DNA of 64,000 nt from Chloroflexota bacterium. GTDB taxonomy: Bacteria > Chloroflexota > Anaerolineae > Anaerolineales > VGOW01. The stretch lies in assembly GCA_016197225.1 (NCBI GenBank), contig JACPWC010000057.1:44675-108674 (forward strand), read 5' to 3'. This document shows positions 13,810-62,380 of this stretch, piece by piece. Position 1 is the first letter of the stretch. Each line of letters starts with the position of its first letter. A program made the position numbers and the translations under genes. A model generated the notes under the pieces. The model was not told where the DNA came from and searched no databases. It saw only the letters and a list, made by a program, of their open reading frames with translations.

Positions 13810-16178
13810 TATGGCGCAAACCGGAGCACAAGCGACTGCTCCGGGCCGGGGCCGCTGTCTTTCTGCAAATCAACTCTGAGCGGGTCAGTCCAGGCGGCTG
13901 GCAGAGTCAGAGTGCCCTGCCACGACTCGGAGTCGTTCAGGATAATGGGCGTTGTGACCCGGTGGACGCGGTAGGTCGTCGTCTGCCCTTCGTGATTGAT
14001 CAGGCGCAGGCCGATGCAGATATTCGAGTCACAGGAGGCGACGCTTTCCACGTAGAACTCTGTATAAGGTTCAGCCGCCGCCTGCCTGGATAGCCGATCG
14101 GCCAACGGCCCATAACCCAACATCAACACACTCGTCAGCAGGATGATCAACATGATCTTGTTGCTCGCCGACTGCCGCCAAAGACGCCACAGGCTCAACC
14201 CGGCCAGTCCGGCTAGCGTCAGCGGTGCCAGCCACCCGGGCGAAGGCGCGCCCAGCAGATTGGCCAGCAGGTATTCCACAAAGACAAGCAGAAGCGCTAA
14301 CGCGACACCCAGGCCAAGCCCGGCTTCAACGTCGGCTCGCGCCAAAACCGTCAGCCCGGCCCCGCACAGAATCAAAAGAACGATCTGGCCGGTTGCCAAC
14401 AGCCAGGGCAACACTTGATCGCCGGCGTTGAAAACGGGCAGCGAATCAGAAGCAGAAAGCAGATCGCGCATTTGAAATCCGCGCGACACACTTAACGGCG
14501 GGGCGTAAACTTCGGCCCAGCCCGCATCGTAAATGCGGCCTAGCTTGCCAGCCGTGAACGACTCCAGAGAAATGTTGGAAGCGAACTGATACTGATCGCG
14601 CTCGCCGACTATCAGGGAGGCCGAGGGCGACGGTATCGCCGGCTCCAGATCGCAGTGCGCGCATCCCGGGTTGTTGCCGGTGAGCGGGCGGATCAGGCGG
14701 TAGAGGCCGAGTCCGGCGAAGATGTCGGCCTCGGGGCGGAGTTGCAGAATCAGATCGTATTCCTGCCGCAACAGCAGAGAGCGCGTCTCGCCCTGCGCGA
14801 GGTCGGGTTGGCGTTGCGAGTAGAGGTGGGCAGGCACGCGATACAGACTGTTTAGCCCATAGACGACGAACACCAGCCCCAGCGGCCACGACAGCCACCG
14901 CCGTCCTTGAAATGAAATCAGCACCGTATAAGCGGCGGCGGGCAACAAAAAGGCATAGCTCAAAATCTCAAAGCGGCTGGGGAGCGAACTGGTTCCCTGA
15001 ACTCTGCCGAGTGTAACCAGCACACTCCCCAGACCCATCATCCCGCCCCACAACACAAAGATTGTGTGCCAGACTCGCCGGCTTTTGCCGGAAGTGAACG
15101 ATCCGGCCAGAGCCAGCAGGCCGAACAGGGCAGTGGTCAGCATTTGCAGGTACAACAAAATTGTGTAGCGCGCCGTCTGCGGCAGTTTTAGCGCCGCCAC
15201 TTCCGGCCCGGCGGTGGCGTCCTGAAACAGCGACTCGGCCAGCCTCAGTGGCGTGTATCGCAGATAAAGCCAGTACATGGAGAGAGCCACAAAAATGAAG
15301 AGCCACAGGGTGAAATTGATCTGGCCCACGCTGGAGAAATGGAGTCGATCTTTCAACCAGGAGAGGCGCGCCCCGTAATGCGCCACCAGCGCCAACAGCA
15401 CAAACATCAACAGCGCCAACGCCATGAGGTGGTGCGCAAAAATAACGCCAACGCTGAGGGCCATTGCCGCCAGCCGGTAAAAACGCCCCGCCGTCTCCTG
15501 CGACTTCACAATCGAATAGATGGCCGCCAGAAATAGAGCGAAGGCCAGCGTCTCGCGCACGTAGAGCGAGTGAAACATGAGGTACATGTACGTCAGGCCA
15601 AAGCCCAGCGCGCCCAACAGCGCAACCCGTTTCGACTGATAGACTTCCAGGCTGATCGCATAAACCAACTGCAGAGAGATTAGACTGAGGAAGGGCATTG
15701 ACCAGCGCGCCCAGGTCATCAGCGATAGCTGGACGGGGCCGGTGAGTGACAGGCTGATGGCGGAGAGAAAAGGGTAACTGGTTTGATGCGGCCACAACGA
15801 CAGCCCTTCATTCCACGGGGAAAGCGCCAACCAGCCCGAGCGCCCGATCTCGGACGTGGCGGCGTAATCGTGGTAGGCATCCGAACCGAAAAAGGGGACG
15901 GTTGCCGGGGCAAAGATGGTTTTGAACAGCCAGACCAGAGTCATAATTGCCCACAAGGCCCAGATGAGCGATGGCGCTTCATCGTGGCTAATCAAAATCC
16001 ACACGACCAGCGCCGTGATCGCCAGCGCACTGCCGCCCCAAAACAGGCTCACGGGCAAATACAGTCCGGCCCGAACGGCGATCAGATAAGCCAGCAAAAC
16101 GATCAAACTGATCCCAAACAAACTCTGGCAGACCCGTATCGGCAAGCGTGGCGCAATCCCGGTTGAGTTTACGTTCAT
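13809..16178 (-). CDS. large polytopic membrane protein, putative GT-C-type glycosyltransferase/polymerase (PMT/ArnT-like)
   Basis: 789 aa with more than 15 hydrophobic helices and a large C-terminal soluble region; embedded in a glycosyltransferase operon next to a polyprenol-P-sugar synthase-like GT2. Function is inferred from context only. Confidence 0.4.
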   Translation of the reverse strand: MNVNSTGIAPRLPIRVCQSLFGISLIVLLAYLIAVRAGLYLPVSLFWGGSALAITALVVWILISHDEAPSLIWALWAIMTLVWLFKTIFAPATVPFFGSDAYHDYAATSEIGRSGWLALSPWNEGLSLWPHQTSYPFLSAISLSLTGPVQLSLMTWARWSMPFLSLISLQLVYAISLEVYQSKRVALLGALGFGLTYMYLMFHSLYVRETLAFALFLAAIYSIVKSQETAGRFYRLAAMALSVGVIFAHHLMALALLMFVLLALVAHYGARLSWLKDRLHFSSVGQINFTLWLFIFVALSMYWLYLRYTPLRLAESLFQDATAGPEVAALKLPQTARYTILLYLQMLTTALFGLLALAGSFTSGKSRRVWHTIFVLWGGMMGLGSVLVTLGRVQGTSSLPSRFEILSYAFLLPAAAYTVLISFQGRRWLSWPLGLVFVVYGLNSLYRVPAHLYSQRQPDLAQGETRSLLLRQEYDLILQLRPEADIFAGLGLYRLIRPLTGNNPGCAHCDLEPAIPSPSASLIVGERDQYQFASNISLESFTAGKLGRIYDAGWAEVYAPPLSVSRGFQMRDLLSASDSLPVFNAGDQVLPWLLATGQIVLLILCGAGLTVLARADVEAGLGLGVALALLLVFVEYLLANLLGAPSPGWLAPLTLAGLAGLSLWRLWRQSASNKIMLIILLTSVLMLGYGPLADRLSRQAAAEPYTEFYVESVASCDSNICIGLRLINHEGQTTTYRVHRVTTPIILNDSESWQGTLTLPAAWTDPLRVDLQKDSGPGPEQSLVLRFAP

Positions 16179-25113: not shown

Positions 25114-25475
25114 ATGTTCTCCTTTGCAAAGTAGCGCTCCAGTGACCGGAGCTTTCCAAAATGTTGGGTTGCGCCTTGCCTTCCGGCAAAATAAAACGAG
25201 CCTGGTAAATCCAGGCTCGTTGAAGCTAAATTAGGAATGCGAGGGCCTATAATAAAAACTTCGGCGGCCTGGCGGTCATGGCCGACTCAGGCGGCTGTAG
25301 ACCCATAGCTTTGCGCCCCCGGCTTTCGCCGGGTTTGCCTTTATCAAGTTTTTAAGTTGACAGGTTCTATATTTACTTCTTAGTCTGGCGTTAGTATATG
25401 TCAGCATAATGATGATGTCAGTTGGTTTTTGGAGGGAATAGTTAGGAAAAGTAACATAAATTCCAGCGCCGGTGC

Positions 25476-29030: not shown

Positions 29031-30364
29031 CACTCGAACCGGCCCGGTTCGCCCAATACCGGCCTCGCCCGCTGGAAATTATTGATACCACGCTGCGCGA
29101 GGGACAGCAGACCTCTCTTCTGCACGATCACTATAAATATTTTTTCACCCGCGCCGACAAGGAAGAAATTCTGAGCGCGTTGATTACTTACGGAGTCAAA
29201 TTTGTCGAGTTGTTCGCCCCGGTCGTCAGCGCCCAGGAGCGGGACGATTTCGCGGCGCTCAAGGCCGCGCGCGATGCGCTCATTACCCAGAAGGGCTACA
29301 CCTTCCTGCTTGCCCACGTCCGCTGTCATCCGCGCGATGTGGAATCCGCAATCCAGGCCGGAGCCGACGGCCTGAACTTCTACATCGGTACTTCAGCCGA
29401 GTCGCAGGCCTTCAATCATGGGCGCGATCTTAAGTCCATTGCTACTGAAGCCCGGACGCTGATCGAAGACGTGCGCCGCTGTTATCCCCATCTCATCCTG
29501 CGCTTCTCGGGCGAAGACGCCTTCCGCACCCGTGAAGCCGACCTCTTCCGCGTGTACGATGAAATTGCGCCGCTCGTGGATCGCCTGGGACTCCCGGACA
29601 CGGTCGGGGTTGCCACTCCGGCCAGCGTTGCCCAGCGCGTCGAGGCCCTGCAAACCCGTTACCCGCAGATGGAGTTCGAGGGCCATTTTCACGACGACCG
29701 GGGCTTTGCTTTGATCAATGCCCTCGCCGCCGTCGGTCATGGCGCGCGTTACCTCAACACCACCGTCCTCGGCTTCGGCGAGCGGTCGGGCATCACCTCG
29801 CTCACCGCCCTGCTGTTCAACTTGTATATTGATCGCGACTACGACAAGCTCGAAGGCTATCACCTGCGCGGCTCTTATCCGCTCAACGTTCTGGTCGCCG
29901 ACAAGCTCAAGAAGCTTGTCCCATCCAAAGAGCCGGTGAGCCTCACCAACCGAACGCACACCGCGGGCGTGCATCAAAACGCGGTCTTGCGTGATTCGTC
30001 GGCTTACGAGGCGCATCCGCTTGATGTCTTCGGGGTGAGCGCGTCCGAGATTCTGCTTGGCCCGCTCTCCGGCTGGAACATCATCCATTACTTTCTCAAA
30101 GAGATTCGCTACTACCAACTTGATGAGGCCGTCGCCAAAGAGATCGCCGTCGTCTTCAAGGAGCGCGTCTATCAACTTGCGCCCGACATTTCGCCCGAAC
30201 AGGTGTTGATCGGTATTGCTGAGAATCAATTCGGCCTGGCCCGTTTGCAACTGCCGGAGACAGCGCGTAGCCAGATCATCCAACGACTCGACTCGCCTGA
30301 GGGTGAGCGCGAGGCCGGGGTGGCGGGCGTCCCACTCAACGGGCGCTCGAAGGACGTTCACTGA
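29027..30364 (+). CDS. DRE-TIM metallolyase: homocitrate/2-isopropylmalate/citramalate-synthase-like enzyme with a divergent active-site motif
   Basis: [11 protein letters not shown] where LeuA/CimA have RDGEQ and Thermus homocitrate synthase has REGEQ (motif comparison from memory, not checked against an alignment); [17 protein letters not shown]...GFGERSGI (H-x-H metal site). 445 aa; ATGA overlap with the upstream regulator. Confidence 0.7.
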
Positions 30365-31686
30365 TGGGATACACGTTTGCCGAAAAAGCTCTGGCCCGCG
30401 CCGCCGGGCTGTCCCACGCCGTCGCCGGGCAAGTGGTGGACGCCCGCCCCGACATTGTCCTCTCGCACGACAACACGGCGGCCATCGCCAAAATCTTTCG
30501 CTCTATCGGGCTGGAGCGCGTGGCTATCCCCGACCGAATGGCGATCACCCTCGACCACGCCGTGCCAGCGCCCACTACCAAACACGCTCAGAACCACGCC
30601 GAAGTGCGAGCCTTCGTCAAAGAGCAGGGCATCAAGCATTTCTTTGAAGTCGGGCGCGGCATTTGTCATCAGGTCTTCAGTGAAGAAGCGTTGATCCTGC
30701 CCGGCCAACTCATCCTGGGATCGGACTCGCACACGGCGCACTTCGGCTGGCTGGGGGCGTTTGGCGCGGGCGTGGGCCGTACCGAAGTGGCCGCCCTGTG
30801 GGCGACCGGCGAACTCTGGTTGCGCGTGCCGGAGAGCATGAAGATTGTGGTCACCGGCGAACTGGGCCGGGGCATCACCGCCAAAGACCTGTCCCTGCAT
30901 ATCATCGGCCAACTCGGCGCAGAGGGCGGGTTGTACATGTCGGTCGAACTCTCCGGCCCGGCCATCGAACAGATGAGTCTGGAGAGCCGCATGGTTATCC
31001 CCAATATGATGGCCGAGTTTGGGGCGAAGAATGCCTACCTTGCCCCGGACGAAAAAGTGTTTGAGTATCTGGCCGAGAGGCGGCTCAGACGTGTTGCGTA
31101 TTCCGTATTGCGTAACGCGGACGCTCGGTCAGCCATCAACGATCAGAAATCAACTATCAAAGAATTGGCTCTGTATCCGGACCCCGACGCAGTTTACGCC
31201 GCCGTTCATACCTTTGACGCCTCAGCCATCAGTCTCACCGTCTCTTGCCCCCACACCGTTGACTCAACCCAACCCCTTTCCGCCGTCCGGGGAACGCGCA
31301 TCCATCAGGCCTTCATCGGGACTTGCACCAACGGGCGCGTGGAAGACCTCGCGGCGGCGGCAGAAATCGTGAGGGGCAGGAAAGTTGCTCCGGGCACCCG
31401 CCTGCTCGTCGTCCCGGCCTCCTCTGAAGTTTATGCCGATGCGATTCGCCTGGGCCACGTTCAGACGCTGATGGAGGCAGGCGCGGTGTTCGGCACGCCG
31501 GGCTGTGGGCCGTGCATGGGCAACCACATGGGCGTGCTGGCCCCGGGCGAAGTCTGCCTCTCGACGGCCAACCGCAACTTCAAGGGCCGCATGGGACAGC
31601 CTGAGGCGGAAATTTATCTGGCCAGCCCGGCGGTGGTAGCGGCGAGCGCGGTGACGGGCGTGATTACCGATCCGAGAGAGTTGTGA
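30364..31686 (+). CDS. aconitase-family dehydratase large subunit (3-isopropylmalate dehydratase / homoaconitase LeuC-HacA-like)
   Basis: GICHQV...LGSDSHT...GTCTNGR...GCGPCMG, the aconitase-family Cys ligand motifs; ~440 aa archaeal-type. Contains an in-frame CGTATT heptamer insertion. Confidence 0.8.
31093..31119. repeat. CGTATT-heptamer element copy inside the LeuC-like CDS
   Basis: gttgcgtattccgtattgcgtaacgcg, the same heptamers as the 2215-2282 hairpin; in frame ([12 protein letters not shown]). Confidence 0.55.
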
Positions 31687-31696
31687 GTTTGGGGGT

Positions 31697-32239
31697 GTGG
31701 GTGTGACTCAATCAACAATTATTGGCAGAGTCTGGAAATACGGCGACGGGGTGAATACCGACGTGATCTTCCCCGGCAAGCATACCTACACCTTGCGCGA
31801 ACCAGATGAGATCGCGGCGCACGCGCTGGAAGACCTCGATCCAGGTTTTGCGGCGCAGGCCCGGCCGGGCGACATCGTCGTCGCCGGGCGCAACTGGGGC
31901 AACGGCAGCTCGCGCGAGCAGGCCGTCACCTGCCTGAAGTACAAAGGCATTGCCGCCGTCGTCGCCAAATCGTTCGCCCGCATCTACTTTCGCAACGGCA
32001 TCAATCAAGGCCTGTTGCTTATCACCTGCCCGGAGGCCGTGGACGCGGCGCAGGTTGGAGACATGATGGAGATTGACCTGGCCGGCAGTCTGATCCGTCT
32101 CGCTTCGCGCGGGCGAGAGTACACATTCCCGCCTTTATCCTCCACTGCCCTGAGCATCATCGAAGCGGGCGGCCTGGTGCCGCACCTGCGGCAGAAACTT
32201 GGGCTGAGTGGCACGGCGGATGTGCGGATGACGGATTAG
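31697..32239 (+). CDS. aconitase-family dehydratase small subunit (LeuD/HacB-like)
   Basis: [14 protein letters not shown]...[14 protein letters not shown], the LeuD signature. Confidence 0.8.
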
Positions 32240-32251
32240 GGAACGCGCCTA

Positions 32252-32737
32252 TCACCGCCGCCGCGCTTTTTTGGCCCGCAGTCGTTCCTTTTTGTTCGGC
32301 TTGTGTTTCTCCTTAGCCCGCCCTGGCAAGGCAGGCGGCCCCCCGGGCGCGCCGTCGGAATGGATAAATTCCACCAGCGGATATGGATTATCGTCAGTGC
32401 CGAGGGGCAAATGCCGCTTTGACTCCGGCACGGCGTCCAAATCTACCAGGCCCAGCGGGGCCCATTCCGAGCCGATATTCCAACCCTGTTTGCCAAAGCC
32501 CAGCATCTCGCTCACCCGGTCGCCGTTGATCACTATCGTCGGGCAGGCGGGACAAAACCAGCCAAAGTCTCCGCCCAGCACAAAGCTGTCGGCGATACGC
32601 CTCCCCTGCCGGGTGGCGATCATGTACGTCGCGCGTTCTTGCTTCAACGCCGCGCCGCAGTTCGGGCAAGGTTCCGGCCGGCCCGTGAATGAGTGAACGA
32701 AACACTTTCTTCGGATAGTCTGGTCAATGGTTGTCAT
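32252..32737 (-). CDS. small zinc-ribbon protein with a lysine/arginine-rich C-terminal tail
   Basis: ATG 32737; CPNC...CPAC paired CxxC motifs; C-terminus KEKHKPNKKERLRAKKARRR. The ORF track entry 32252-33712 is mostly antisense to the dehydrogenase gene; only the 3' 161 codons look genuine. Confidence 0.45.
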   Translation of the reverse strand: MTTIDQTIRRKCFVHSFTGRPEPCPNCGAALKQERATYMIATRQGRRIADSFVLGGDFGWFCPACPTIVINGDRVSEMLGFGKQGWNIGSEWAPLGLVDLDAVPESKRHLPLGTDDNPYPLVEFIHSDGAPGGPPALPGRAKEKHKPNKKERLRAKKARRR

Positions 32738-32776
32738 TGGTTTGACTCCCCTCACTGACTGTATCTTACCGCGACC

Positions 32777-32815
32777 CGAGACTTCCGAAGTCTTAAAGAC
32801 TTCGGAAGTCTGGGA
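32777..32815. repeat. perfect 15-bp inverted repeat AGACTTCCGAAGTCT-taa-AGACTTCGGAAGTCT (intergenic, divergent promoter region)
   Basis: Read directly; the same element occurs inside gltB. Confidence 0.8.
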
Positions 32816-32845
32816 TTCTCGTGAGTGTATAATCTCTGGAGTCAG

Positions 32846-33838
32846 ATGAACAAAACGATTGTCCTCATCCCCGGCGACGGCGTTGGGAAAGAAGTGATTC
32901 CGGCGGCGGCGGAGGTGCTGGCGGCGCTTGGCCTGGGGTTCAAATTCGTCGAAGCGCAGGCGGGCTTTGAGCACTTTCAAAAAACAGGCAACGCCATCCC
33001 CGACGAAACGCTGGCCGAGGTGGAAGCGGCCGGCGTCGCACTGTTCGGGGCGACTTCCTCCCCTTCCACCAGCGTGCCCGGCTATCGCAGTCCGATCCTG
33101 GCTCTGCGGAAGACTTTCGATTTGTACGCCAACCTGCGCCCTACCTTCTCGCTCCCCGGAAAATTTTCCCGGCCCAACGTCAATCTGCTCATCGTCCGCG
33201 AGAACACCGAGGGGCTGTACGCCGGGCGCGAACGCCGCGAGGGAGACACGGCGATTGCCGAAAGAGTCGTCACCGTGCGCGGGTCGGAACGAATCGCGCG
33301 GGCCGCGTTTGAACTGGCGAGGAAGAAAAAATCCCAAGTGACAATTGTCCACAAGGCTAACGTGCTCAAGCTGACCGACGGCCTGTTTCGCGAGTGTTGC
33401 CTGAGGGTAGCGGCGGAATTCCCGGAAGTGAAGGTGAGCGAAATGCTGGTGGACGCCATGGCGATGCGGCTGATGCGCGACCCGGAGAACTTTGAAGTGA
33501 TCGTGACGACCAACTTGTTTGGCGACATTCTCTCGGATGAGGCGAGCGCGCTGATGGGCGGCCTGGGGGTTGCGCCTTCGGCGAACGTGGGCGCGCGCGT
33601 TGCGGTGTTTGAGCCGGTTCACGGCTCCGCGCCGGATATTGCCGGGCAAGGCGTTGCCAACCCCATCGGGGCGATTCTGTCGGCGGGGATGTTGTTGGAT
33701 CACCTCGGCCACGTCGAGGCGGCGGATCGGGTCAGGAGGGCGGTCATGGCAACCCTGGTGGCCGGAGTCATGACAAAAGACCTGGGTGGTCAGGCGACGA
33801 CGAAGGAAGTGACGCGCAAGGTTTTGGCCGGTTTGTAA
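32846..33838 (+). CDS. isocitrate/isopropylmalate-dehydrogenase-family enzyme (3-isopropylmalate or homoisocitrate dehydrogenase)
   Basis: [13 protein letters not shown]; [13 protein letters not shown]; [12 protein letters not shown]; the [12 protein letters not shown]...GG region. TATAAT at 32828-32833 lies just upstream of ATG 32846. Confidence 0.8.
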
Positions 33839-33958
33839 AGCGACTATTCACCCAATACCCCAAACGGGTGAGCAAGGGAAATGGCCCGCTTCGGTGACGA
33901 CAGAGTGCGGTCCGCTCCGTAAACTGCTAGAGAAATCCCGGCGGAACGGAGCAACCCC

Positions 33959-36900
33959 TTGCCTCACCCTTCATTCTCTAATTCCTCTCTCTCTCCCTAC
34001 GCCCCTCGTTTTGATCGCGGCGGTTGCGGCATCGGCTTTGTGGCCGACCAGCATGGCCGCCCAAGCCACGCTCTTCTGCTTCAAGCCCTTGAGGCGCTGA
34101 ACAACCTTCAACACCGGGGCGCATTGTCTGCCGACGCGCGCACTGGCGACGGGGCAGGCGTGCTCACCCCTCTTCCCCGCAACCTCTTCGCCCGTGAGGC
34201 TGAACGGCTCACCGGCCATTCCGTCAATCCCGATCAACTAGCCGTCGGCGTTTTCTTCTTTCAGCCGGACACAGCCGAGCAGTGCATGGCTCTGGCCGAG
34301 TCGGCGCTCGCGGCACAGGGCCTCCGCCTCTTGTGTTGGCGCGAAGTCCCCACCCACCCCGACGCTATTGGCGAACGCGCCCGCGCCACCATGCCGCGCA
34401 TCATGCAGGCAATAATCTATAACCAATTACCAATTACTAATTACCAATTTGAGCGCTCCCTCTACCTCGCCCGCAAACACTTCGAGCGCCACGCCCGCCC
34501 CCTCGGCGCGTACGTCCCCTCCTTCTCTTCGCGCACCATCGTCTACAAAGGCTTACTCCTCGCCCCGCAACTTCCGGCTTTCTACGCCGACCTGCAAGAC
34601 CCCGATTACGAAGCGCCGCTAGCCGTCTTTCATCAACGCTACAGCACGAACACGCTTCCCACCTGGCAGCGCGCCCAACCGTTCCGGGTGCTGTGCCACA
34701 ACGGCGAGATCAACACTTTGCAGGGCAACATTAACTGGATGAAGACGCGCGAGCCGCAATTAGACCTGTCAGGTCTTCTCCGCCCGGTGATTGATACCGG
34801 CGGCAGTGACTCGGCGATGCTCGACAACGCGGCGGAACTGCTGATGATGGGCGGGCGCGACATCCGGCACGCGCTCACCATGCTGGTCCCGCCCGCCTGG
34901 GAAAAGCTTCCCGACCTGACCGATGCCGTCCGCGATTTCTACGAATACCACACCTGCCTGACCGAACCCTGGGACGGGCCGGCGGCCCTGGTCTTCACCG
35001 ACGGTGCAACCGTCGGTGCAACCCTCGACCGCAACGGCCTGCGCCCGTGCCGTTACGTTGTCACCGAGGATGGATTGATCGCGGCGGCGTCCGAGGCCGG
35101 AGCGGTGGCCGTAGATGAAGCGCGCGTTCTCGTCAAAGGCAAACTCGGCCCCGGCCAGATGATCGCGGTGGACACGGCGCGCGGCCTGTTCTTCGAGGAC
35201 GGCCAGATCAAAGCCGAACTCGCCGCGCGAAAGCCCTATGGCGTTTGGGTGCGCGACAATCTGCGAAAACTCCCTGCAACAGCCACGCGAAGCGGCCATC
35301 AGCCACGCGAAGCGACCATCAGCCAGCAGGCCGCTTTCGGTTACACCAACGAAGAACTGGTCACGGTGATCCGTCCAATGGTCGAAAACAAAGCCGAGGC
35401 CATCGGCTCGATGGGCGACGACACTTCGCCGGCGGTGCTCTCGGACAAGCCCCGTCCGCTGTTCGGCTATTTCCGCCAGCGCTTCGCGGAAGTGACCAAC
35501 CCGCCGATTGACCCTCTGCGCGAAGAGTTGGTGATGTCGCTCCGTGTCCGGCTCGGCGCGCGCGGCAACTTCGTGGCTGAAACGCCGGAGCAGGCTCGAC
35601 TGCTCGAACTCGACAGCCCCTTCCTGACCGACGCCCAGTTGGCCGCCCTCAAAGCCGATCCTGAACTCAAGGCGGTGACTCTCTCAACGCTGTTCCGGGC
35701 GGCAGAGGGCGCGCCCGGGTTGCAGTTGGCGCTCGACCGGCTGTGCGCCGAAGCCGAACAGGCGGCGCGGGCCGGGGCGCAAGCCATCGTCCTGAGCGAC
35801 CGGGGCGTGGACGCCGAACACACTTTCATCCCATCGCTCCTCGCTCTCGGCGCGGTTCATCATCATCTTTTGCGGAGTGATTTGCGGGTGCAGGTAGATT
35901 TAGTAGTCGAAAGCGGCGAGCCGCGCGAGGTGCATCACTTTGCGGCACTCGTCGGTTATAGCGCGGCGGCCATCAACCCTTACCTGGTGTTGGCGGCCGC
36001 CGCCGGGTCGGGCCGGGATCAGGTGTCCCCCGAAGAGGCGGCGGCACGTTATCTTCATGCCGCCGAGCGCGGTCTGTTGAAGATCATGTCCAAGATGGGC
36101 ATCAGCACCGTAGATGCTTATTGCGGCGCGCAGATTTTTGAGGTCATCGGCTTGAGTAGTGAAGTAGTAGACGTTTATTTTGTCGGGACGGCCTCACACC
36201 TGGAAGGCCTCGGCCTGGACGGAATCGCCGACATCGTGCTGGCCTGGCATCGGGCCGCGTTTGGCGTAGACCGGCCTTCCCTCGACAGCCCCGGCTTCTA
36301 CAAATTCAAGCGCAACGGCGAACAGCACGCTTTCAGCCCGGCGGTTGTCCATGCCTTGCGCGATGCGGTGCGCACCCCCGGCGCGCTCAACGGCCACTGG
36401 GCCGAAGGGCACTCGGCTTACAAACGCTACAGCAAGCTCCAACACTCGCGAGCGCCGGTAGACGTGCGCGACCTGCTGGACTTTCACACCAATTACCAAT
36501 TACCAATTACTACCGATCAGGTGGAGTCCATTCCCACGATCATCCGCCGCTTCTCCACCGCCGCCATGTCGCACGGCGCGCTCTCGAAAGAGGCGCACGA
36601 GACCATGGCGATTGCCATGAACCGCCTCGGCGCGTGGAGCAACTCCGGCGAGGGCGGCGAAGACCCGGCGCGTTACTACGGCGAGAGCAACGACCGCATC
36701 AAGCAAGTGGCCTCGGCCCGCTTTGGCGTCACCCCGGCCTATCTCGTTTCGGCAGACGAATTGCAGATCAAAATGGCGCAAGGCTCCAAGCCCGGCGAGG
36801 GCGGGCAATTGCCGGGCCACAAAGTCACCGCCGAGATCGCCGCCATCCGTCACGCCACGCCCGGCGTGACGCTCATCTCGCCGCCGCCGCACCACGACAT

Positions 36901-38470
36901 TTACAGCATCGAAGACCTGGCGCAGTTGATCTACGACTTGCGGCAGATCAACCCGCGGGCGATCATCTCGGTCAAACTGGTGGCGCAGGCGGGAGTTGGC
37001 ACGATCGCGGCGGGTGTGGCAAAGGCGGGCGCGGACGCGATCCTCATCAGCGGCAGTTCCGGCGGCACCGGCGCGTCGCCGTTGAGCAGTATCAAATATG
37101 CGGGCATCCCCTGGGAACTTGGGCTGGCCGAGACGCAGTACGTTCTGATCGAGAACGGCTTGCGCGAGCGCGTTCGTTTACGAGCCGACGGCGGCCTGCG
37201 CACCGGGCGCGATGTGGTCGTGGCCGCCCTGCTCGGCGCGGACGAATACTCTTTCGGCACGGCGGCGGTGGTGGCCGAAGGTTGCCTCATGGCCCGCGCC
37301 TGCCACCTCAACACCTGCCCGGCCGGAATCGCCACCCAACGCCCGGAACTGCGGGCCAAGTTCGACGGCACGCCCGAACAAATCATGGCCTTCTTCATGC
37401 ACGCCGCTGAAGAAGTGCGTGAGATTCTGGCGAGCCTCGGGCTGGAGTCGCTCGACGAAGCGATTGGCCGGGTGGAATTGTTGAAGCAGATGGCCGCTCC
37501 GCGTGAGCGGCCTCTGGACCTCAGCCGCCTCTTGCTCGCGCCGCCGGGTGATGGCTCCCGGCGTTACACGGGTGAGCCGAATCGCGTTCCTTCGGACTCG
37601 CCGCTCAACGAGCAACTTCTGGCAGATTGCGAGCAACACTCAATCCTTGACCACCCCTGGCGGCCTCTGCGCCGGGAAAGTTTTGTGTACCACATCACCA
37701 ACCGCGACCGCGCCTTTGGGGCGCGGCTGGCCGGCGAGATTGCCATGCGCTACGGCGACGCCGGCCTGCCTGAGGGCACGATCAAAGTCACGCTCCGGGG
37801 CAGTGCCGGGCAATCGTTCGGCGCATTTGGCGTGCCGGGGCTAAATCTAACATTGATGGGCGAAGCGAACGACGACGTGGGCAAGGGTCTGGCTGGAGGG
37901 AGGATCGTTATCAAACAGACTTCCGAAGTCTCGCCGGTCTTTGGCGCTTCGGAAGTCTGGGGTTCGGAAGTCTGGGCGGAATCCCCCGTGCTTGCCGGGA
38001 ACACGGTGCTATATGGCGCAACCGGCGGCGAAGTCTTCATCGCCGGGCGGGCCGGTGAACGATTCGCCGTCCGCAACAGCGGCGCGACGGCGATTGTCGA
38101 AGGCGTGGGCGACCACGGCTGTGAGTATATGACCGGCGGGCTTGCCATCATCTTAGGCTCCATTGGCTACAACTTCGCGGCGGGGATGACGGGCGGCGTC
38201 GCCTTTTTGCTCGACGAGGACGGGCGAGCGCCAGCGCGAATCAACGGGCAGTTGGTTCAGGTCGAAGCGCCCAGCGACGAAGACCTGGAAATGTTGCGAG
38301 TCTGGATCGCCCAACATGCGCAACTGGCCGCCAGCAACAAGGCTCAAGCGTTGCTGGACAATTGGGCAGAGGCGTCGAAGCAGTTCTTGAAGGTCGCCCC
38401 AAAAGATCAACCGGCGGCTGGCCTCATTCCGGTAATATCGCCTGGGTTGGCTGTGCCTGTGCCGGGATAA
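33959..38470 (+). CDS. gltB: glutamate synthase large subunit
   Basis: N-terminal class-II amidotransferase CGIGFVA; FMN and GXGXG domain layout; ~1500 aa. The start is a TTG in the ORF track and the true start is uncertain. Contains three in-frame low-complexity inserts. Confidence 0.9.
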   Translation: MPHPSFSNSSLSPYAPRFDRGGCGIGFVADQHGRPSHALLLQALEALNNLQHRGALSADARTGDGAGVLTPLPRNLFAREAERLTGHSVNPDQLAVGVFFFQPDTAEQCMALAESALAAQGLRLLCWREVPTHPDAIGERARATMPRIMQAIIYNQLPITNYQFERSLYLARKHFERHARPLGAYVPSFSSRTIVYKGLLLAPQLPAFYADLQDPDYEAPLAVFHQRYSTNTLPTWQRAQPFRVLCHNGEINTLQGNINWMKTREPQLDLSGLLRPVIDTGGSDSAMLDNAAELLMMGGRDIRHALTMLVPPAWEKLPDLTDAVRDFYEYHTCLTEPWDGPAALVFTDGATVGATLDRNGLRPCRYVVTEDGLIAAASEAGAVAVDEARVLVKGKLGPGQMIAVDTARGLFFEDGQIKAELAARKPYGVWVRDNLRKLPATATRSGHQPREATISQQAAFGYTNEELVTVIRPMVENKAEAIGSMGDDTSPAVLSDKPRPLFGYFRQRFAEVTNPPIDPLREELVMSLRVRLGARGNFVAETPEQARLLELDSPFLTDAQLAALKADPELKAVTLSTLFRAAEGAPGLQLALDRLCAEAEQAARAGAQAIVLSDRGVDAEHTFIPSLLALGAVHHHLLRSDLRVQVDLVVESGEPREVHHFAALVGYSAAAINPYLVLAAAAGSGRDQVSPEEAAARYLHAAERGLLKIMSKMGISTVDAYCGAQIFEVIGLSSEVVDVYFVGTASHLEGLGLDGIADIVLAWHRAAFGVDRPSLDSPGFYKFKRNGEQHAFSPAVVHALRDAVRTPGALNGHWAEGHSAYKRYSKLQHSRAPVDVRDLLDFHTNYQLPITTDQVESIPTIIRRFSTAAMSHGALSKEAHETMAIAMNRLGAWSNSGEGGEDPARYYGESNDRIKQVASARFGVTPAYLVSADELQIKMAQGSKPGEGGQLPGHKVTAEIAAIRHATPGVTLISPPPHHDIYSIEDLAQLIYDLRQINPRAIISVKLVAQAGVGTIAAGVAKAGADAILISGSSGGTGASPLSSIKYAGIPWELGLAETQYVLIENGLRERVRLRADGGLRTGRDVVVAALLGADEYSFGTAAVVAEGCLMARACHLNTCPAGIATQRPELRAKFDGTPEQIMAFFMHAAEEVREILASLGLESLDEAIGRVELLKQMAAPRERPLDLSRLLLAPPGDGSRRYTGEPNRVPSDSPLNEQLLADCEQHSILDHPWRPLRRESFVYHITNRDRAFGARLAGEIAMRYGDAGLPEGTIKVTLRGSAGQSFGAFGVPGLNLTLMGEANDDVGKGLAGGRIVIKQTSEVSPVFGASEVWGSEVWAESPVLAGNTVLYGATGGEVFIAGRAGERFAVRNSGATAIVEGVGDHGCEYMTGGLAIILGSIGYNFAAGMTGGVAFLLDEDGRAPARINGQLVQVEAPSDEDLEMLRVWIAQHAQLAASNKAQALLDNWAEASKQFLKVAPKDQPAAGLIPVISPGLAVPVPG
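34423..34450. repeat. CCAATTA heptamer run inside gltB (encodes NQLPITNYQ)
   Basis: ccaattaccaattactaattaccaatt. Confidence 0.6.
36487..36512. repeat. second CCAATTA heptamer run inside gltB (encodes TNYQLPITT)
   Basis: caccaattaccaattaccaattacta. Confidence 0.6.
37917..37976. repeat. GACTTCCGAAGTCT-family palindromic element inserted in frame in the gltB C-terminal domain
   Basis: agacttccgaagtct-cgccggtctttggcg-cttcggaagtctgggg-ttcggaagtctggg; encodes TSEVSPVFGASEVWGSEVWAE. Confidence 0.75.
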
Positions 38471-38484
38471 GGCAGTAACCCCAT

Positions 38485-39378
38485 CTAAAGTATACGTTGC
38501 CCAAAAAGGGACGTTGCCAACTCCACTCCAAGTTTAGCCGTCCGGTTGCGGTCATCCAGAACAGGGTTGACTTCGACGATGTCGAGCGAAGAAACTTTGC
38601 CAGAGTCGGAGAGGATTTCCATGAGCAAGTGGGCTTCGCGGTAGGTGAGGCCGCCAGGAACGGGCGTGCCAACGCCGGGCGCTTCGTTCGGGTCGAGAGA
38701 GTCCATATCGAGGCTGATGTGGAGTTTGTTCATCCGGCCCAGGCGTTCCAGCGCCTGGCGGGCCGCCGCCGCCATTCCCATTTCGTCAATGTCGCGCATG
38801 GTGATCACTAGAATACCTGACTCGCGCAAAGCGACCCGCTCCTGAGCATCAAGGTCGCGCGCGCCAATGATGACGGCCTCCGAGGGTTTGAGTTTTGCGC
38901 CGGGGCGGCCAATGTCGGTCAGTTCTGCCGGGCCGCGCCCCAACAACGCCGCCAGGGCCATGCCATGCACGTTGCCTGACGGGGTTATATCGGGCGTGTT
39001 GAAATCGCCGTGAGCATCTACCCAGATCACGCCCACATTTTCGCCATGCGTGTCCATCGCCGACACCGTGCCGATGCTGATCGAATGGTCGCCGCCGAGA
39101 AAGACGGCAGTCTCGTGCTGTTCGAGGCAGGCCAGAGCGTTGGCGTAAACGTCGCGGCACACGCTGGCGATGCTGTGCAAGTGGCGGGCGCGCGAGTTGT
39201 CGGGTGGCTCGTTTTCGGGCAAGGGCACGATGAGGTTGCCATTGTCGGTGATGGTGTGGCCGATCTTGCGAAGCTGATCGTTCAGTCCGGCATAGCGCAG
39301 GGCGCTGGGGCCCATGTCTACTCCGCGCCGCCGCTGGCCTAAATCCATAGGAACGCCGAAGATGCGGATGTTTCGCAT
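38485..39378 (-). CDS. arginase/ureohydrolase family enzyme (arginase-like)
   Basis: [27 protein letters not shown]: the three Mn-binding ureohydrolase motifs. Confidence 0.75.
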
Positions 39379-41221: not shown

Positions 41222-41270
41222 TGGCAAATCCCAATTCTCAACTCCCAAAATCCCAAATCCCAACTTCCAA
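41222..41270. repeat. AT-rich CCCAA(A)T(C) repeat tract upstream of the carboxyltransferase start
   Basis: aatcccaattctcaactcccaaaatcccaaatcccaacttccaaca. Confidence 0.5.
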
Positions 41271-41272
41271 CA

Positions 41273-42913
41273 ATGCCTGTCATCGAATCCCAACTCAACC
41301 CAAACGACGAACGCTTCAAAGAGAACGCCGAACACAACCGGGCGCTGGCCGAAGAATTGCGGACGCGGCTGGCGCAAGCCCGGCAGGGTGGCGGCGAGAA
41401 GTATCAGCGGCGGCACGAGGCGCAGGGCAAGTTGTTTGTGCGCGAGCGCATTGACAAACTGCTCGATCCCAATTCTCCATTTCTCGAATTCTCCCCATTG
41501 GCGGCCTGGCACATGTATCACAACGAAGCGCCGGGCGCGGGCCTCGTCACCGGCATTGGCCGCGTGAGCGGGCGCGAGTGCCTGATTGTGGCCAACGACG
41601 CGACGGTAAAAGGCGGCTCCTACCTGCCGATGACGGTGAAGAAGCATTTGCGGGCGCAGGAGATCGCGCAAGAGAATCGACTGCCGTGCATTTATCTGGT
41701 GGACTCTGGCGGCGCGTTTTTGCCATTGCAGGCCGAGGTCTTTCCCGACCACGATCACTTTGGCCGCATCTTCTACAACCAGGCGCGGATGAGCGCGCTG
41801 GGCATCCCGCAGATTGCGGCGGTGATGGGCAGTTGCACGGCAGGCGGGGCCTACGTTCCGGCGATGAGCGACGAGACAGTGATTGTTCAAGGGACGGGCA
41901 CGATCTTTCTGGCCGGGCCGCCGCTGGTGAAGGCGGCGACGGGTGAAGAAGTGACCGCCGAGGAGTTGGGCGGCGCGTGGGTTCACACTCACAAGTCCGG
42001 CGTGGCCGACCATTTTGCCGAGGACGATGAGCAGGCGCTGGAGATGGTGAGAGAAATCGTTGCGACACTGGGAGACGAAGGACGAAGGACGATGGACGGT
42101 AGACAACAATCGTCGGTCGTCGGTCGTCCGTCGTCGGTGGAAGAACCGCTGTATCCTGCTGAGGAGTTGTATGGGATTATTCCAAAGTCGTTCCGCGAGT
42201 CTTATGATGCGCGGGAGGTGATTGCGCGGCTGGTGGACGGGAGCGAACTGCGCGAGTTCAAGGCCAACTACGGCACGACGCTGGTGACGGGCTTTGCCCG
42301 CATTGACGGTTTCCCCGTCGGCATCATTGCCAACAACGGGGTACTGTTCAGCGAGAGCGCCTTGAAGGGCGCGCACTTTGTCGAACTTTGCGCGGCGCGG
42401 GACATCCCGCTATTGTTTTTGCAGAACATCACCGGCTTCATGGTCGGGCGCGAATACGAGGCGGGCGGCATCGCCAAAGACGGGGCCAAGATGGTGCATG
42501 CCGTCGCCAACGCCCGCGTGCCCAAGTTTACAATCATCATCGGCGGCAGTTTTGGCGCGGGCAACTACGGCATGTGCGGGCGGGCCTACCAGCCGCGCTT
42601 CCTGTGGATGTGGCCCAACGCTCGCATCAGCGTGATGGGCGCTGAGCAGGCGGCCAACGTTCTACTGACGGTGAAGCAGGATCAACTGGCCCGCGAGGGC
42701 AAGCCGCCGATGTCGCCCGAAGAGGCAACCGCTTTCAAACAGCCCACGCTCGACAAGTACGAAGCCGAAGGCAGTCCCTATTACTCGACGGCGCGGCTTT
42801 GGGATGATGGGATTCTTGATCCGGTGGAGACGCGGCGTGCCCTGGGGTTGGCGATTGCGGCGGCTTACAATGCGCCGGTGGAGGAGACGAAGTATGGCGT
42901 GTTCAGAATGTGA
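41273..42913 (+). CDS. acyl-CoA carboxylase carboxyltransferase (beta) subunit (propionyl-/methylcrotonyl-CoA carboxylase beta-like)
   Basis: Two crotonase-like CT domains, with [10 protein letters not shown] and [13 protein letters not shown] motifs. The ORF track starts at 41213, but ATG 41273 follows an AT-rich repeat. Confidence 0.8.
42070..42138. repeat. GACGA-family palindromic mini-element inserted in frame in the carboxyltransferase gene
   Basis: gacgaaggacgaaggacgatggacgg...cgtcggtcgtcggtcgtccgtcgtcgg; encodes [21 protein letters not shown]. Confidence 0.7.
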
Positions 42914-42924
42914 GGAGGGAGAAG

Positions 42925-44712
42925 ATGACGGATATTCAACCGATTGAATCATGCCTGAAGTTCTCTAAAATTCTCATCGCCAACCGCGGCGAAATCGCCG
43001 TCCGCATCATCCGCGCTTGCAGGGAAATGGACATTCGCACTGTTGCCGTTTACTCCGAAGCTGATGCCAACGCACTCCACACTCGGCTGGCCGACGAAGC
43101 TGTGCCCATCGGCCCGCCCGCGCCGCGCGAGTCCTACTTAAAAATTGATCGCCTGCTCGAAGCCGCCCGGAACACAAACGCCGACGCCATTCATCCGGGC
43201 TACGGCTTCCTGTCCGAGAACGCCGACTTCGCCGAGGCGGTTGCGGCGGCAGGCATTGTGTTCATTGGCCCGCCTGCCGAAGCCATTCGCAAAATGGGAA
43301 GCAAGACCGGAGCGCGAACCATGATGGAACAGGCTGGGGTGCCTGTGGCGTCGGGCTTCTCGCCGATGAACAATGAAATAATGAACAATGAACAATGGGC
43401 TGGAGCGGCAAAAAAGATTGGCTATCCGGTGCTGGTGAAGGCGGCGGCGGGCGGCGGCGGCAAAGGGATGCGGATCGTTCGCGCGCCGGATGAACTGGAC
43501 GAGGCAGTGGCGGCGGCCCGGCGCGAGGCGGCCAATGCCTTTAGCGACGATAGCATCTTTCTCGAAAAGTACATTGAGAGTCCGCGCCACATTGAGTTTC
43601 AGGTGTTGGCCGACTCGTTCGGAGAGACCGTTCACTTGTTTGAGCGTGAGTGTTCCATTCAGCGTCGTCATCAGAAAATTATTGAAGAGACGCCGTCGCC
43701 GTTCCTCACAAGGGAAATAAGAGAAAAGATGGGAAATGCGGCGGTGGCGGCGGCCCGGGCCGTCGGCTATGCCAGCGTAGGCACGGTTGAGTTCATCGTT
43801 GAACCGTCCGGCAATTTCTACTTTTTGGAAATGAACACCCGCCTGCAAGTGGAGCACCCGATCACTGAAATGATGACCGGCGTGGATTTGGTGAAGGCCC
43901 AAATTCGAATCGCGGCGGGCGAGCGCCTCTGGTTCGGGCAACGTGATCTTTCGCAACGCGGCCACGCCATTGAGTGCCGGGTCTACGCCGAAGACCCGGC
44001 CAATAATTTTTTTCCGTCGGTCGGGAAGATCGAGGAGGCCATTGAACCAGTCCGCCCCGGCGTGCGCGTGGATGCCGGCGTGGCGGCGGGCGACGAGGTC
44101 TCGATCCACTACGATCCGATGATCGCCAAAGTGATTGCCCACGCCGAGACTCGCGCCGACGCAATCCGCAAGATGGATGCGGCGCTGGCTGACTACAAGT
44201 TGACAGGCATCACCACCAATATTTCATTTTTGCGTGCCGTGCTGGCTCACCCGGCTTTTGGGCGGGGCGAGACGACGACGCATTTTATTGAAGAGCATTT
44301 GAGGGATTGGCAACCAGAGGCACAGGAGTCAGAAGTCAGGAGTCAGAAGCCAGAATTGAGAGCAATGGCGGCAGACCCCTGGGAACGCGCGGATGGTTTC
44401 AGGCTGGGGACGGGCGCGGCGGCAGGTAGTGGGCGGCAGGCGAGCGGGGGCGTGAAGCGAGAAGCGGCCAAACGACAAACGACACGGGCGGGCGGCCACG
44501 AGGCGCTGGAGGCGGCAATGCCGGGCCTGGTGCGAAACGTGCTGGTAAAAGAAGGCGATTTGGTGGAAAAAGGCCAGGCGCTGGTGCTGTTGGAGGCGAT
44601 GAAGATGGAGATTCGGGTGGCCGCACCGCACGCCGGGAAGGTCGTCAAAGTGCTGGTTTCACCCGGCGAGACGGTTGACCGGGGCCAGCGGCTGATTGAA
44701 CTCGGCCATTGA
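42925..44712 (+). CDS. acyl-CoA carboxylase alpha subunit (biotin carboxylase + biotin carboxyl carrier domain)
   Basis: ILIANRGEIAVRIIRAC...ATP-grasp; C-terminal EAMKMEI biotinyl-lysine motif; RBS GAGGAGGGAG upstream of ATG 42925. Confidence 0.85.
   Translation: MTDIQPIESCLKFSKILIANRGEIAVRIIRACREMDIRTVAVYSEADANALHTRLADEAVPIGPPAPRESYLKIDRLLEAARNTNADAIHPGYGFLSENADFAEAVAAAGIVFIGPPAEAIRKMGSKTGARTMMEQAGVPVASGFSPMNNEIMNNEQWAGAAKKIGYPVLVKAAAGGGGKGMRIVRAPDELDEAVAAARREAANAFSDDSIFLEKYIESPRHIEFQVLADSFGETVHLFERECSIQRRHQKIIEETPSPFLTREIREKMGNAAVAAARAVGYASVGTVEFIVEPSGNFYFLEMNTRLQVEHPITEMMTGVDLVKAQIRIAAGERLWFGQRDLSQRGHAIECRVYAEDPANNFFPSVGKIEEAIEPVRPGVRVDAGVAAGDEVSIHYDPMIAKVIAHAETRADAIRKMDAALADYKLTGITTNISFLRAVLAHPAFGRGETTTHFIEEHLRDWQPEAQESEVRSQKPELRAMAADPWERADGFRLGTGAAAGSGRQASGGVKREAAKRQTTRAGGHEALEAAMPGLVRNVLVKEGDLVEKGQALVLLEAMKMEIRVAAPHAGKVVKVLVSPGETVDRGQRLIELGH
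44325..44356. repeat. tandem GAGTCAGAAG(T/C)CAG repeat in the BC-BCCP linker (encodes QESEVRSQKPE)
   Basis: ggagtcagaagtcaggagtcagaagccagaa. Confidence 0.5.
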
Positions 44713-55265: not shown

Positions 55266-55295
55266 GAGAGTTCTCCTTTCGTCTAAACATTTCGC

Positions 55296-55333
55296 AGACC
55301 TCACAGGTCTGCTTCGCAAGACCTGTGAGGTCT
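55296..55333. repeat. perfect 15-bp inverted repeat AGACCTCACAGGTCT-gcttcgca-AGACCTGTGAGGTCT between two minus-strand genes
   Basis: Read directly. Confidence 0.75.
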
Positions 55334-55339
55334 ACGCCG

Positions 55340-62159: not shown

Positions 62160-62380
62160 GGCAACTCTTATCCAGAGAGGCGGAGGGACCAGCCCGATGA
62201 AGCCTCGGCAACCGTCTGGATGTTAGAGGTTAGAGGTTAGAAATTGGAGAACTTCCAAAATCTAACATCCAACTTCCAACCTCCAAAATTGGTGCCAATT
62301 CCGGCAGGTATCTGGAAGATGAGAGGGAGCCACGAGTTAAATCGCCATGCCCCTTCTCCGCCAGAAGGGGCTTTTATTTA
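62160..62380 (+). promoter_or_regulatory. SAM-I (S-box) riboswitch with an expanded P3 stem, plus terminator-type expression platform
   Basis: CUCUUAUCCAGAGAGGCGGAGGGACCAGCCCGAUGAAGCCUCGGCAACC ...GGUGCCAAUUCCGGCAG...GAAGAUGAGAGG matches the SAM-I consensus blocks. A ~75-nt imperfect palindrome (62222-62290) is inserted where P3 normally closes. Terminator ccccttct-ccgcc-agaagggg + cttttattt at 62349-62380. Confidence 0.8.

Follow-up and report, generated by a model that had tools for sequence, protein, structure and literature searches.

We analysed a 64,000-nucleotide stretch of DNA from a Chloroflexota bacterium (contig JACPWC010000057.1), called the window below, and focused on gltB, the gene for the large subunit of glutamate synthase, and on the repeat DNA that is read in frame within it. 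Pfam searches of the gene product showed, in order, GATase_2 (residues 23-430, E = 2.5e-155), Glu_syn_central (456-733, 1e-107), Glu_synthase (799-1162, 1.1e-148) and GXGXG (1244-1442, 2.7e-70). This succession of class-II amidotransferase, central domain, FMN/synthase domain and GXGXG beta-helix is that of the GltB/Fd-GOGAT type. The product aligned over its full length with the solved enzymes 1ea0, 6s6s, 1llw and 7mfm (Azospirillum, Synechocystis and Bacillus), and Cys23 aligned to residue 1 (Cys) of mature 1ea0. The boundaries quoted for the domains of Azospirillum GltB are said to originate with Binda et al. in 2000. Among 37 aligned GltB sequences, Cys23, Cys1109, Cys1115 and Cys1120 were invariant; we take Cys23 to be the nucleophile and the other three to be the ligands of the 3Fe-4S cluster.

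The nearest database proteins were 87%, 77% and 76% identical and all metagenomic, and the named relatives belonged to Anaerolineae, Anaerolineales, Thermoflexales and Chloroflexus. We retrieved ortholog DNA for six orthologs and built a codon alignment with the window gene. Synonymous divergence (dS) from the window gltB was 0.40 for P0001, the 87%-identical ortholog from an independent Joint Genome Institute (JGI) assembly, 0.96 for P0002, and 1.2-1.4 for the other orthologs. The gltB of the window is an intact gene under purifying selection: the pairwise ratio of nonsynonymous to synonymous divergence (dN/dS) was 0.14-0.20 against the six orthologs, and the frame was intact in every ortholog examined.

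Table 1. Positions of gltB, its repeat patches and related repeats in the window, with the AlphaFold prediction for the patch residues. ORF, open reading frame; TRF, Tandem Repeats Finder; pLDDT, predicted local distance difference test; nt, nucleotides.
Feature	Position	Strand	Encoded peptide or setting	Residues, predicted structure, pLDDT
gltB, glutamate synthase large subunit	33959..38470	+	1503-aa ORF; TTG start, GGAG 7 nt upstream	
Heptamer array 1, CCAATTA, about 4 units	34418..34450	+	(Y)NQLPITNYQF; loop between strand and helix, amidotransferase domain	155-160; coil between strand 147-154 and helix 161-182; about 92 (block 151-160)
Palindrome AGACCTGTCAGGTCT	34762..34776	+	DLSGL; remnant or minimal copy of second hairpin family	267-277; coil; <50
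20-bp tandem CAGCCACGCGAAGCGRCCAT x2.3	35280..35325	+	Linker residues 440-452 after amidotransferase domain; TRF score 85, 96% matches	438-451; coil; <50
Heptamer array 2, CCAATTA x3.3	36487..36512	+	TNYQLPIT(T); loop at start of FMN domain region	843-851; coil; about 84
Hairpin element with 15-bp duplication of its 3' end	37917..37976	+	Arms AGACTTCCGAAG / CTTCGGAAGTCT around inner CGCC-N7-GGCG stem	1324-1339; coil between two beta strands; <50
Canonical 33-nt hairpin AGACTTCCGAAGTCT-TAA-AGACTTCGGAAGTCT	32779..32811		Divergent intergenic region before leuB; 15-bp stem	
Sister hairpin AGACCTCACAGGTCT-N8-AGACCTGTGAGGTCT	55293..55336		Intergenic; AGAC-N7-GTCT architecture; AGACCTG-W-CAGGTCT family	
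In-frame heptamer or octamer arrays in other housekeeping genes	6546-6608, 42074-42138, 43366-43397, 44323-44355, 9064-9087			

The original prediction, made from the letters of this locus, had described three independent, AT-rich insertions in gltB from two repeat families. We found at least five repeat-derived patches, including those at 34762-34776 and 35280-35325, and four families, namely heptamer arrays, a hairpin of the AGACTTC-S-GAAGTCT type, a palindrome of the AGACCTG-W-CAGGTCT type, and a 20-bp tandem repeat. The claim of AT-richness held for the heptamer runs, with a G+C content (GC) of 25-31% against 63.8% for the gene, but not for the palindrome island, with 60%. The two CCAATTA runs were where they had been placed, at 34423-34450 and 36488-36510, and translation in the gltB frame confirmed their reading into NYQLPIT-type peptides (NQLPITNYQF and TNYQLPITT). 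TRF delimited array 1 at 34422-34449 (4.0 copies, 90% matches) and array 2 at 36488-36510 (3.3 copies, 100% matches). When 2 mismatches at most were allowed, CCAATTACCAATTA matched the window 5 times against 0.22 expected, a count that no shuffle reached, and the edge upstream of array 1 is fuzzy (AATAATC TATAACC).

We then mapped the patches on the Azospirillum enzyme, a check that the original prediction had proposed. Array 1 aligned without a gap to residues 135-144 of Azospirillum GltB (NNKGVSDEQF), giving 0 net residues, and array 2 aligned to residues 833-839 with +1 residue. At both heptamer loops the Chloroflexus-type orthologs have the same loop length as the window. Judged by these alignments, both CCAATTA runs are replacements of loop codons without lengthening, and not the net insertions that had been claimed. 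Their independence did not hold either. Because P0001 carries CCAATTA arrays at both sites, with codons and phases identical to those of the window gltB, the runs were most likely inherited rather than acquired separately. In their DNA the arrays were 87% and 96% identical to those of P0001, and the whole gene averages 87%; over only 8-10 codons this can hardly be separated from ordinary inheritance, and special conservation at the DNA level was rejected as a candidate.

The orientation of the runs is explained by stop codons. All phases of CCAATTA are free of stop triplets (CCA, CAA, AAT, ATT, TTA, TAC and ACC), and the complement TAATTGG holds TAA. A 7-nt unit visits all three phases within 21 nt, and an antisense CCAATTA array of three units therefore has an in-frame stop. 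For this reason the runs in gltB are oriented alike, and the gene carries single heptamer arms rather than full hairpins because a TAATTGG arm contains TAA. Hairpins of the GACGAAG/CTTCGTC type have no stop triplet in either arm, and hence can be translated whole. The stop-codon argument covers the CCAATTA/TAATTGG pair and the arms of the hairpin. RNA folding gave 0 kcal/mol for the CCAATTA runs, and three successive CCAATTA units gave 12 scattered matches in viral contigs, which we did not take as informative.

The palindromic element in the GXGXG domain was found as predicted. Its left arm, AGACTTCCGAAGTCT, lies at 37917-37931, and its partner, CTTCGGAAGTCT, at 37947-37958; a 15-bp tandem of TTCGGAAGTCTGGGG (x1.9, 37948-37976) follows the palindrome. 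Left arm, partner arm and tandem copy between them encode QTSEVSPVFGASEVWGSEVWAE, and the whole element at 37917-37976 encodes TSEVSPVFGASEVWGSEVW. This region was 10 to 12 residues longer than in 7mfm, 1llw and 1ea0, and 14 residues longer than in P0002, the shortest ortholog. By this comparison the element is a genuine net insertion into a loop of the beta-helix; it adds 10-14 residues, fewer than the roughly 20 first proposed. Among the gltB patches, the palindrome alone is a clear lineage-specific net insertion, so the word insertion stands for it and not for the heptamer runs.

The RNA fold of the gltB hairpin was -35.8 kcal/mol (z = -4.0). At the same site P0002 is empty, P0001 carries some nine heptamer units, and in P0020 a palindrome of the CCCTCTCCC...GGGAGAG type encodes SPLPAGEGLGVRE; among the orthologs compared, the TSEV hairpin occurred at this site in the window gltB only. 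A long-loop variant two loop bases away from the gltB copy was found in a metagenome locus (L120). The left arm CAGACTTCCGAAGTC (37916-37930) is identical at 11 of 15 positions to the start of the P0001 heptamer array, CAAACTTCCAACCTC (locus L081, about 13980-13995), a likeness that could reflect shared ancestry or insertion guided by microhomology. Neither the gltB hairpin nor the copy at 32779-32811 has a T-tract terminator, and counts were at shuffle level; a reading of the hairpins as intrinsic terminators or promoters was rejected on these grounds.

The remaining two patches also sit in loops that vary among orthologs. At the DLSGL loop, orthologs have longer, hairpin-type inserts, such as DLSGLTGLAERPRSEAEWGGDLSGI and DPKGFGNPSGL. 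The 20-bp period at 35280-35325 is not a multiple of 3, and for the frame to stay intact another change, of +1 or -2, must compensate within the linker; this suggests that the linker tolerates a shifted reading frame. In 36 orthologs we found further loops with repeat-derived peptides near residues 580, 685, 770 and 1178, for example PSPSGRGAGGEG, KPGFFEKPGF and GAGLAPAQGE...

We calculated smoothed column entropy from the 37-sequence GltB alignment, whose mean was 1.0 bit. Peaks of 2.3-3.2 bits lay at residues 156-160, 440-452, 848-850, 1180-1183, 1225-1233 and 1322-1331, in addition to the termini, and the linker 440-452 was the most variable and indel-rich segment of GltB. Four of the five repeat patches fall in hypervariable segments, and the fifth (34762-34776) falls at an indel hotspot at residue 270. 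We modelled residues 1-470 and 780-1503 with AlphaFold from shallow alignments of 31 sequences (mean pLDDT 78), and every patch was placed in coil (Table 1). From the gap in homologs, the predicted coil and the hypervariable columns, the position of the hairpin is predicted to be compatible with the fold. The checked conserved motifs of gltB all lay outside the repeat patches. Hits in buried catalytic segments, which would have implied a pseudogene, did not appear: the patches lie in variable loops, no conserved core segment is struck and the gene is intact. The original claim that a conserved enzyme tolerates such elements is thereby upheld: the repeat DNA is genuine and keeps the reading frame of an intact, constrained gene. 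Predicted tryptic peptides covering the repeats would come from the stretches NQLPITNYQFER, DLLDFHTNYQLPITTDQVESIPTIIR and QTSEVSPVFGASEVWGSEVWAESPVLAGNTVLYGATGGEVFIAGR.

Heptamer arrays of other sequence occupied the same loops in orthologs. The ortholog units at the codons of array 2 were CCAATTA, CCAATAA, CCAATCA or CCAATCT. At the array 2 site we found AATCACC x2 (P0007), AATCTCC x2-3 (P0002) and AATAACC/AATTACC (P0020), and a perfect (CAATCAG) x4 occupies the array 1 site of P0020. Near residue 445, within the linker, CCAATTA-type arrays were perfect in P0007 and decayed in P0009, and P0001 has TCCAATC x3.6. Perfect arrays were thus present in orthologs at dS >1.1. Because unchanged inheritance through such variable loops should bring decay, these arrays must, by this comparison, be younger than the lineage splits or have been homogenised. 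The gltB of P0001 (L081, 10001-14542) has six heptamer arrays, including one of 9 units and one of AATTAGT near residue 703; in the 24.5-kb locus around it, TRF reported no other period-7 arrays beyond gltB.

We also scanned GltB proteins for every 7-residue peptide that a perfect heptamer array can encode. Of 121 clade GltBs, 28 contained such peptides, with 87 seven-residue segments in all; shuffled sequences had 3, and a set of 80 GltBs from other phyla, 124,787 residues in length, had 1. In the clade proteins they were commonest at residues 100-199, 400-499 and 800-899. The control from other phyla consisted of 80 loci listed by a genome scan with gltB, among which the best match listed was 55% identical.

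The DNA showed the same excess. Counted from a length of 19 nt upward, perfect period-7 arrays numbered 9.4 per 100 kb in the window and 11.2 in six clade loci, against 1.0 in the 80 other-phyla loci, and the window held six perfect arrays of period 7, none of period 6 and one of period 8. Heptamer arrays are a genome-wide habit of this lineage and are not peculiar to gltB. Many arrays in the window form inverted pairs, (unit)n-spacer-(complement)n, with strong folds (-41.8 kcal/mol at 6546-6608 and -40.7 kcal/mol at 42074-42138), and several of these pairs are located at gene junctions. In other housekeeping genes of the window, arrays are again read in frame. A full heptamer hairpin adds 10 residues to an MCCase-beta-like carboxyltransferase relative to 8j4z/3u9r, and another adds about 30 residues to a molybdopterin oxidoreductase relative to YjgC; a biotin carboxylase contains two in-frame heptamer arrays, and a NarJ-like protein contains one in-frame octamer array (CCAATTCT x3).

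Arrays were also observed outside the interior of these genes. In a SAM-I riboswitch (62165-62325, + strand, 77 bits), the terminal loop of P3, 6 nt in the consensus, is a 67-nt heptamer-array hairpin made of GTTAGAG units and their complement (62217-62286). A G-less, A/C-rich leader with degenerate CAAATCC-type heptamers occupies 41225-41270, up to the likely ATG of the carboxyltransferase (about 41263); it has no Shine-Dalgarno sequence and may be an unstructured translation leader. A CGTATTC/G array of about 2.5 units (31097-31114) lies within a leuC-like ORF (30364-31686), and the same unit recurs in an intergenic hairpin at 2215-2279. The window further contains a full-length c-di-GMP-I-GGC riboswitch aptamer (25259-25348, - strand, 73 bits).

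The hairpin in gltB belongs to a family whose canonical form is AGACTTCCGAAGTCT-NNN-AGACTTCGGAAGTCT, 33 nt long with 15-nt arms of the AGACTTC-S-GAAGTCT type, each arm itself being palindromic. Stop triplets are absent from the arms in all six frames. The canonical copy at 32779-32811 folds at -30.2 kcal/mol (z = -6.0). It lies directly upstream of a TATAAT (32828-32833), at about the -35 position, with the leuB ATG at 32845. A gene for a cysteine-rich, zinc-ribbon-like protein (32252-32737, - strand) is placed between leuD (31697-32239) and leuB, leaving the divergent region 32740-32845; on the contig of the closest relative, leuD and leuB overlap. The sister pair at 55293-55336 matches the family of the gltB palindrome AGACCTGTCAGGTCT. 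In total, the window contains 7 occurrences of the AGAC-N7-GTCT architecture, where 0.43 would be expected.

We searched JGI metagenomes for exact arms separated by 1-30 nt and obtained at least 120 stretches, 80 of which were fetched as loci; perfect conservation of the arms is partly built into such a search. The hairpin was present in at least 120 metagenome contigs, and the fetched loci ranged from 42 to 70% GC and had unrelated flanks. In the 58 canonical copies the loop is 3 nt long and variable, and base counts of their flanks revealed no end tag, target-site duplication or above-chance flank complementarity. Some copies sit between longer direct or inverted repeats, not consistently. 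The majority of copies in the fetched loci are intergenic. Several stand in frame in real genes and read QTSEVSxTSEV or RLPKSxRLRKS; the hosts include an AddB-like nuclease-helicase, a helicase/restriction protein, a reverse transcriptase, an amylomaltase and a pfkB kinase. In the pfkB kinase, whose named relatives are Anaerolineae, about 10 hairpin residues are absent from orthologs of at most 77% identity and present in the clade of at least 84% identity, and the reading frame of the hairpin differs among close relatives. In locus L159 two hairpin copies flank a gene for an SLH-domain-type protein, and a transposase beside these duplicated hairpins was accordingly rejected as a candidate.

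The hairpin was also carried by three related viral contigs that encode TerL, a portal protein, a prohead protease, an HK97-type capsid protein and a Mu Gam-like protein (loci L208, L210, L212, L214 and L215 on the IMG/VR contigs 3300006641_000114, 3300025872_000400 and 3300006917_000353). In this tailed phage the majority of gene junctions carry it, with roughly one copy every 1-3 kb. The flanks of the phage copies often have degenerate, periodic tails of the GGAAGTCTG type, which resemble the 15-bp tail in gltB. When 50,697 phage records of GenBank and 72,556 plasmid records were searched with a canonical 33-nt copy (loop CAA), nothing matched. Rfam gave no matches over 32240-38500, so neither the hairpin nor the arrays are a described RNA family. 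The core 13-mer of the AGACTTCSGAAGTCT hairpin family was absent from the open-access papers and preprints searched, and literature searches by sequence and by topic returned nothing specific on such repeats in Chloroflexi; the family appears to be undescribed.

We compared these repeats with known systems. In Nostoc punctiforme, small dispersed repeats (SDR) of 21-27 nt that are often embedded in heptamer arrays were reportedly described by Elhai et al. in 2008, a paper cited in PMC3116915. They resemble the present case in being tiny and dispersed, in forming hairpins, in occurring alongside tandem heptamers and in their capacity for nesting, but the phylum differs, and the link between hairpin and heptamers here is positional only (the gltB hairpin stands at the array site of P0001), with no sequence relation established. 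Cyanobacterial STRR heptanucleotide repeats are likewise said to have been described by Mazel et al. in 1990. A genome-wide excess of period 7 and an ORF orientation limited by stop codons are shared with these repeats and with those of Beggiatoaceae. Translated heptamers give a cyclic peptide of 7 residues in both settings, LSVISYQ in the known repeats and NYQLPIT here. The host here is Anaerolineae-type Chloroflexota, the units are many and locus-specific, and they often form inverted hairpin pairs; unlike in those systems, the heptamers lie inside conserved enzymes, are length-neutral and recur at the same loops of orthologs. With units such as CCAATTA and with named relatives in Anaerolineae/Chloroflexota, the window heptamers are not members of the cyanobacterial STRR family. 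Heptamers described before include TAACTGA in Beggiatoaceae (PMC4679880) and GGGAATC / GGGGAYT (PMC4692102).

Among palindromic elements, Rickettsia palindromic elements (RPE) are in-frame palindromic repeats in protein-coding genes (PMC10969869). The two cases share dispersed palindromes that lie in frame in unrelated housekeeping genes and are compatible with the fold, and several families per genome. RPEs are about 100-150 bp long and confined to Rickettsia, whereas the element here is 33 nt long (42-60 nt in gltB) on a Chloroflexota background, is stop-free in six frames, occurs in many environmental contigs and in phage, and has no membership in RPE-1 to RPE-10. Intragenic REPs and REPINs are palindromes tagged with GTAG/CGTC (PMC3733652; PMC3116915). 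Like these, the present hairpins are palindromes of 20-40 nt, mostly intergenic between co-directional or convergent genes, with inverted doublets that fold into a longer hairpin, and REPs too lie now and then within a gene in its reading frame, where they account for 20-30 residues. The 58 canonical copies differ in having neither the GTAG/CGTC tag nor a conserved flank; each arm is palindromic, and copies are spread across widely different GC rather than being species-specific. No RAYT-type transposase turned up, although no systematic search was made and the ORFs of the 64-kb window were not all screened. The arms can be read as the terminal inverted repeats of a MITE, but this candidate was rejected, as the flanks lack a duplication and their complementarity is at chance level. 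In sum, the gltB repeats work like RPEs, intragenic REPs and heptamer repeats, but belong to none of those families.

The source genome is saturated with tandem heptanucleotide arrays and tiny, perfect AGAC-N7-GTCT palindromic hairpins. We consider it probable that the repeats in gltB are neutral DNA which is translated and which selection has confined to permissive loops of a working enzyme. Repeats would arise or land at the DNA level throughout the genome, and the surviving copies would be translated as neutral loop filler (NYQLPIT, DLSGL, TSEV and others). The arrays may be born or homogenised when the nascent strand misaligns transiently by one 7-nt unit and then realigns. Such templated correction of quasi-repeats would overwrite sequence at unchanged length, and it would also explain the fuzzy array edges; the remaining turnover would consist of changes of +/-21 nt together with selection on loop length. 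The 33-nt hairpin may spread as a REP/REPIN-like mobile or templated element, and after its insertion the gltB copy would have acquired its inner stem and the 15-bp tandem duplication.

Several points weigh against this explanation. No mobilising gene for the hairpin was found at the loci looked at; since a target-site duplication and an end tag were likewise not found, the argument for mobility is drawn from the distribution of the copies. Identical 15-nt arms across very different GC could mean a conserved function at the protein or RNA level. The translation of the repeat patches is deduced from the intact frame and from selection over the whole gene, and would hold to that extent. In addition, array 1 is modelled as an ordered loop and helix start (block pLDDT about 92), and its peptide may be partly constrained.

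The alternative that fares best holds that the repeats act as nucleic acid, the hairpin being a binding or processing site for a conserved protein or an RNase and the unstructured, G-less CCAATTA runs a landing or pausing site for the ribosome or an S1-type protein, with translation as a by-product. Arms that stay identical in contigs of 42-70% GC and stand at most phage gene junctions do resemble a signal in use, although the identity is partly an artefact of the exact-match search. The overlap of the intergenic copy with the likely -35 region of leuB, the high stability of the gltB hairpin beside runs that fold at 0 kcal/mol, and the similar G-less heptamer leader before the carboxyltransferase start are further points in its favour. 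In orthologs, however, the same gltB loops hold other units, other element families or nothing, the pfkB hairpin stretch varies among close relatives and stands in different frames, and neither hairpin has a T-tract terminator or an Rfam match. We regard this alternative as unlikely.

It is less likely still that the encoded peptides are selected protein features, such as contacts with the partner subunit, oligomer interfaces or regulatory elements. NYQLPIT-type peptides do recur at the same loops in several orthologs, and array 1 is modelled as an ordered segment, but in other orthologs these loops hold unrelated peptides (QSAISNQ, RPTTNDQ, SPLPAGEGLGVRE, TSEV and others) or none, and they coincide with the alignment columns of highest entropy. 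The same DNA units are also present where no protein is encoded and in the loop of an RNA, and the likeness of the peptides derives from the shared DNA units, not the reverse. Heptamer tracts are substrates of phase variation in some pathogens (background cited in PMC4692102), and a 7-nt unit that is not a multiple of 3 would let the gain or loss of one unit turn gltB off or on; with arrays of only 3-4 units spread over the housekeeping genes of the window, the same phase in the 87% ortholog and every ortholog examined in frame, such a switch is highly improbable. An assembly artefact or a decaying pseudogene, which a best protein match of only 87% and a 20-bp tandem that is oddly not a multiple of 3 might suggest, is scarcely credible given identical-codon arrays in an independent JGI assembly, a hairpin variant in unrelated contigs, and an intact ORF of 1503 codons with a dN/dS of 0.14-0.20.

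Neutral translated repeat DNA thus remains the reading we prefer. A bolder proposal, which we put forward tentatively and with more doubt than belief, is that Anaerolineae-type Chloroflexota and at least one phage host an undescribed two-part repeat-generating system. If this were true, the first part would be a six-frame stop-free double palindrome of 33 nt, which would be among the smallest self-spreading elements and pre-adapted to genes. The second part would be the repeated, length-neutral rewriting of protein and RNA loops into heptamer arrays, for which templated misalignment or two-ended repeat addition at breaks are candidate mechanisms. The loops of core enzymes in this clade would then be continually overwritten by a process at the DNA level, not by point mutation.

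The gltB case is new, and the phenomenon of translated repeats is already known. The gene offers a natural map of where a conserved multi-domain enzyme of 1500 residues accepts arbitrary peptides, with about nine loops taking repeats clade-wide, and such a map of permissive loops helps in choosing where to place tags or insertions when GltB/GOGAT is engineered. Loops derived from repeats affect alignment, phylogeny and gene calling, and spurious low-complexity "domains" and shifted starts can result. The presence of the hairpin in many metagenomes and in phage is a lead toward a new mobilising activity. Two features are most worth pursuing: the rewriting of the same loops across the clade at unchanged length, and a 33-nt hairpin that is free of stops in six frames. 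For the lineage itself, much of the loop and indel variation of core proteins may stem from repeat DNA.

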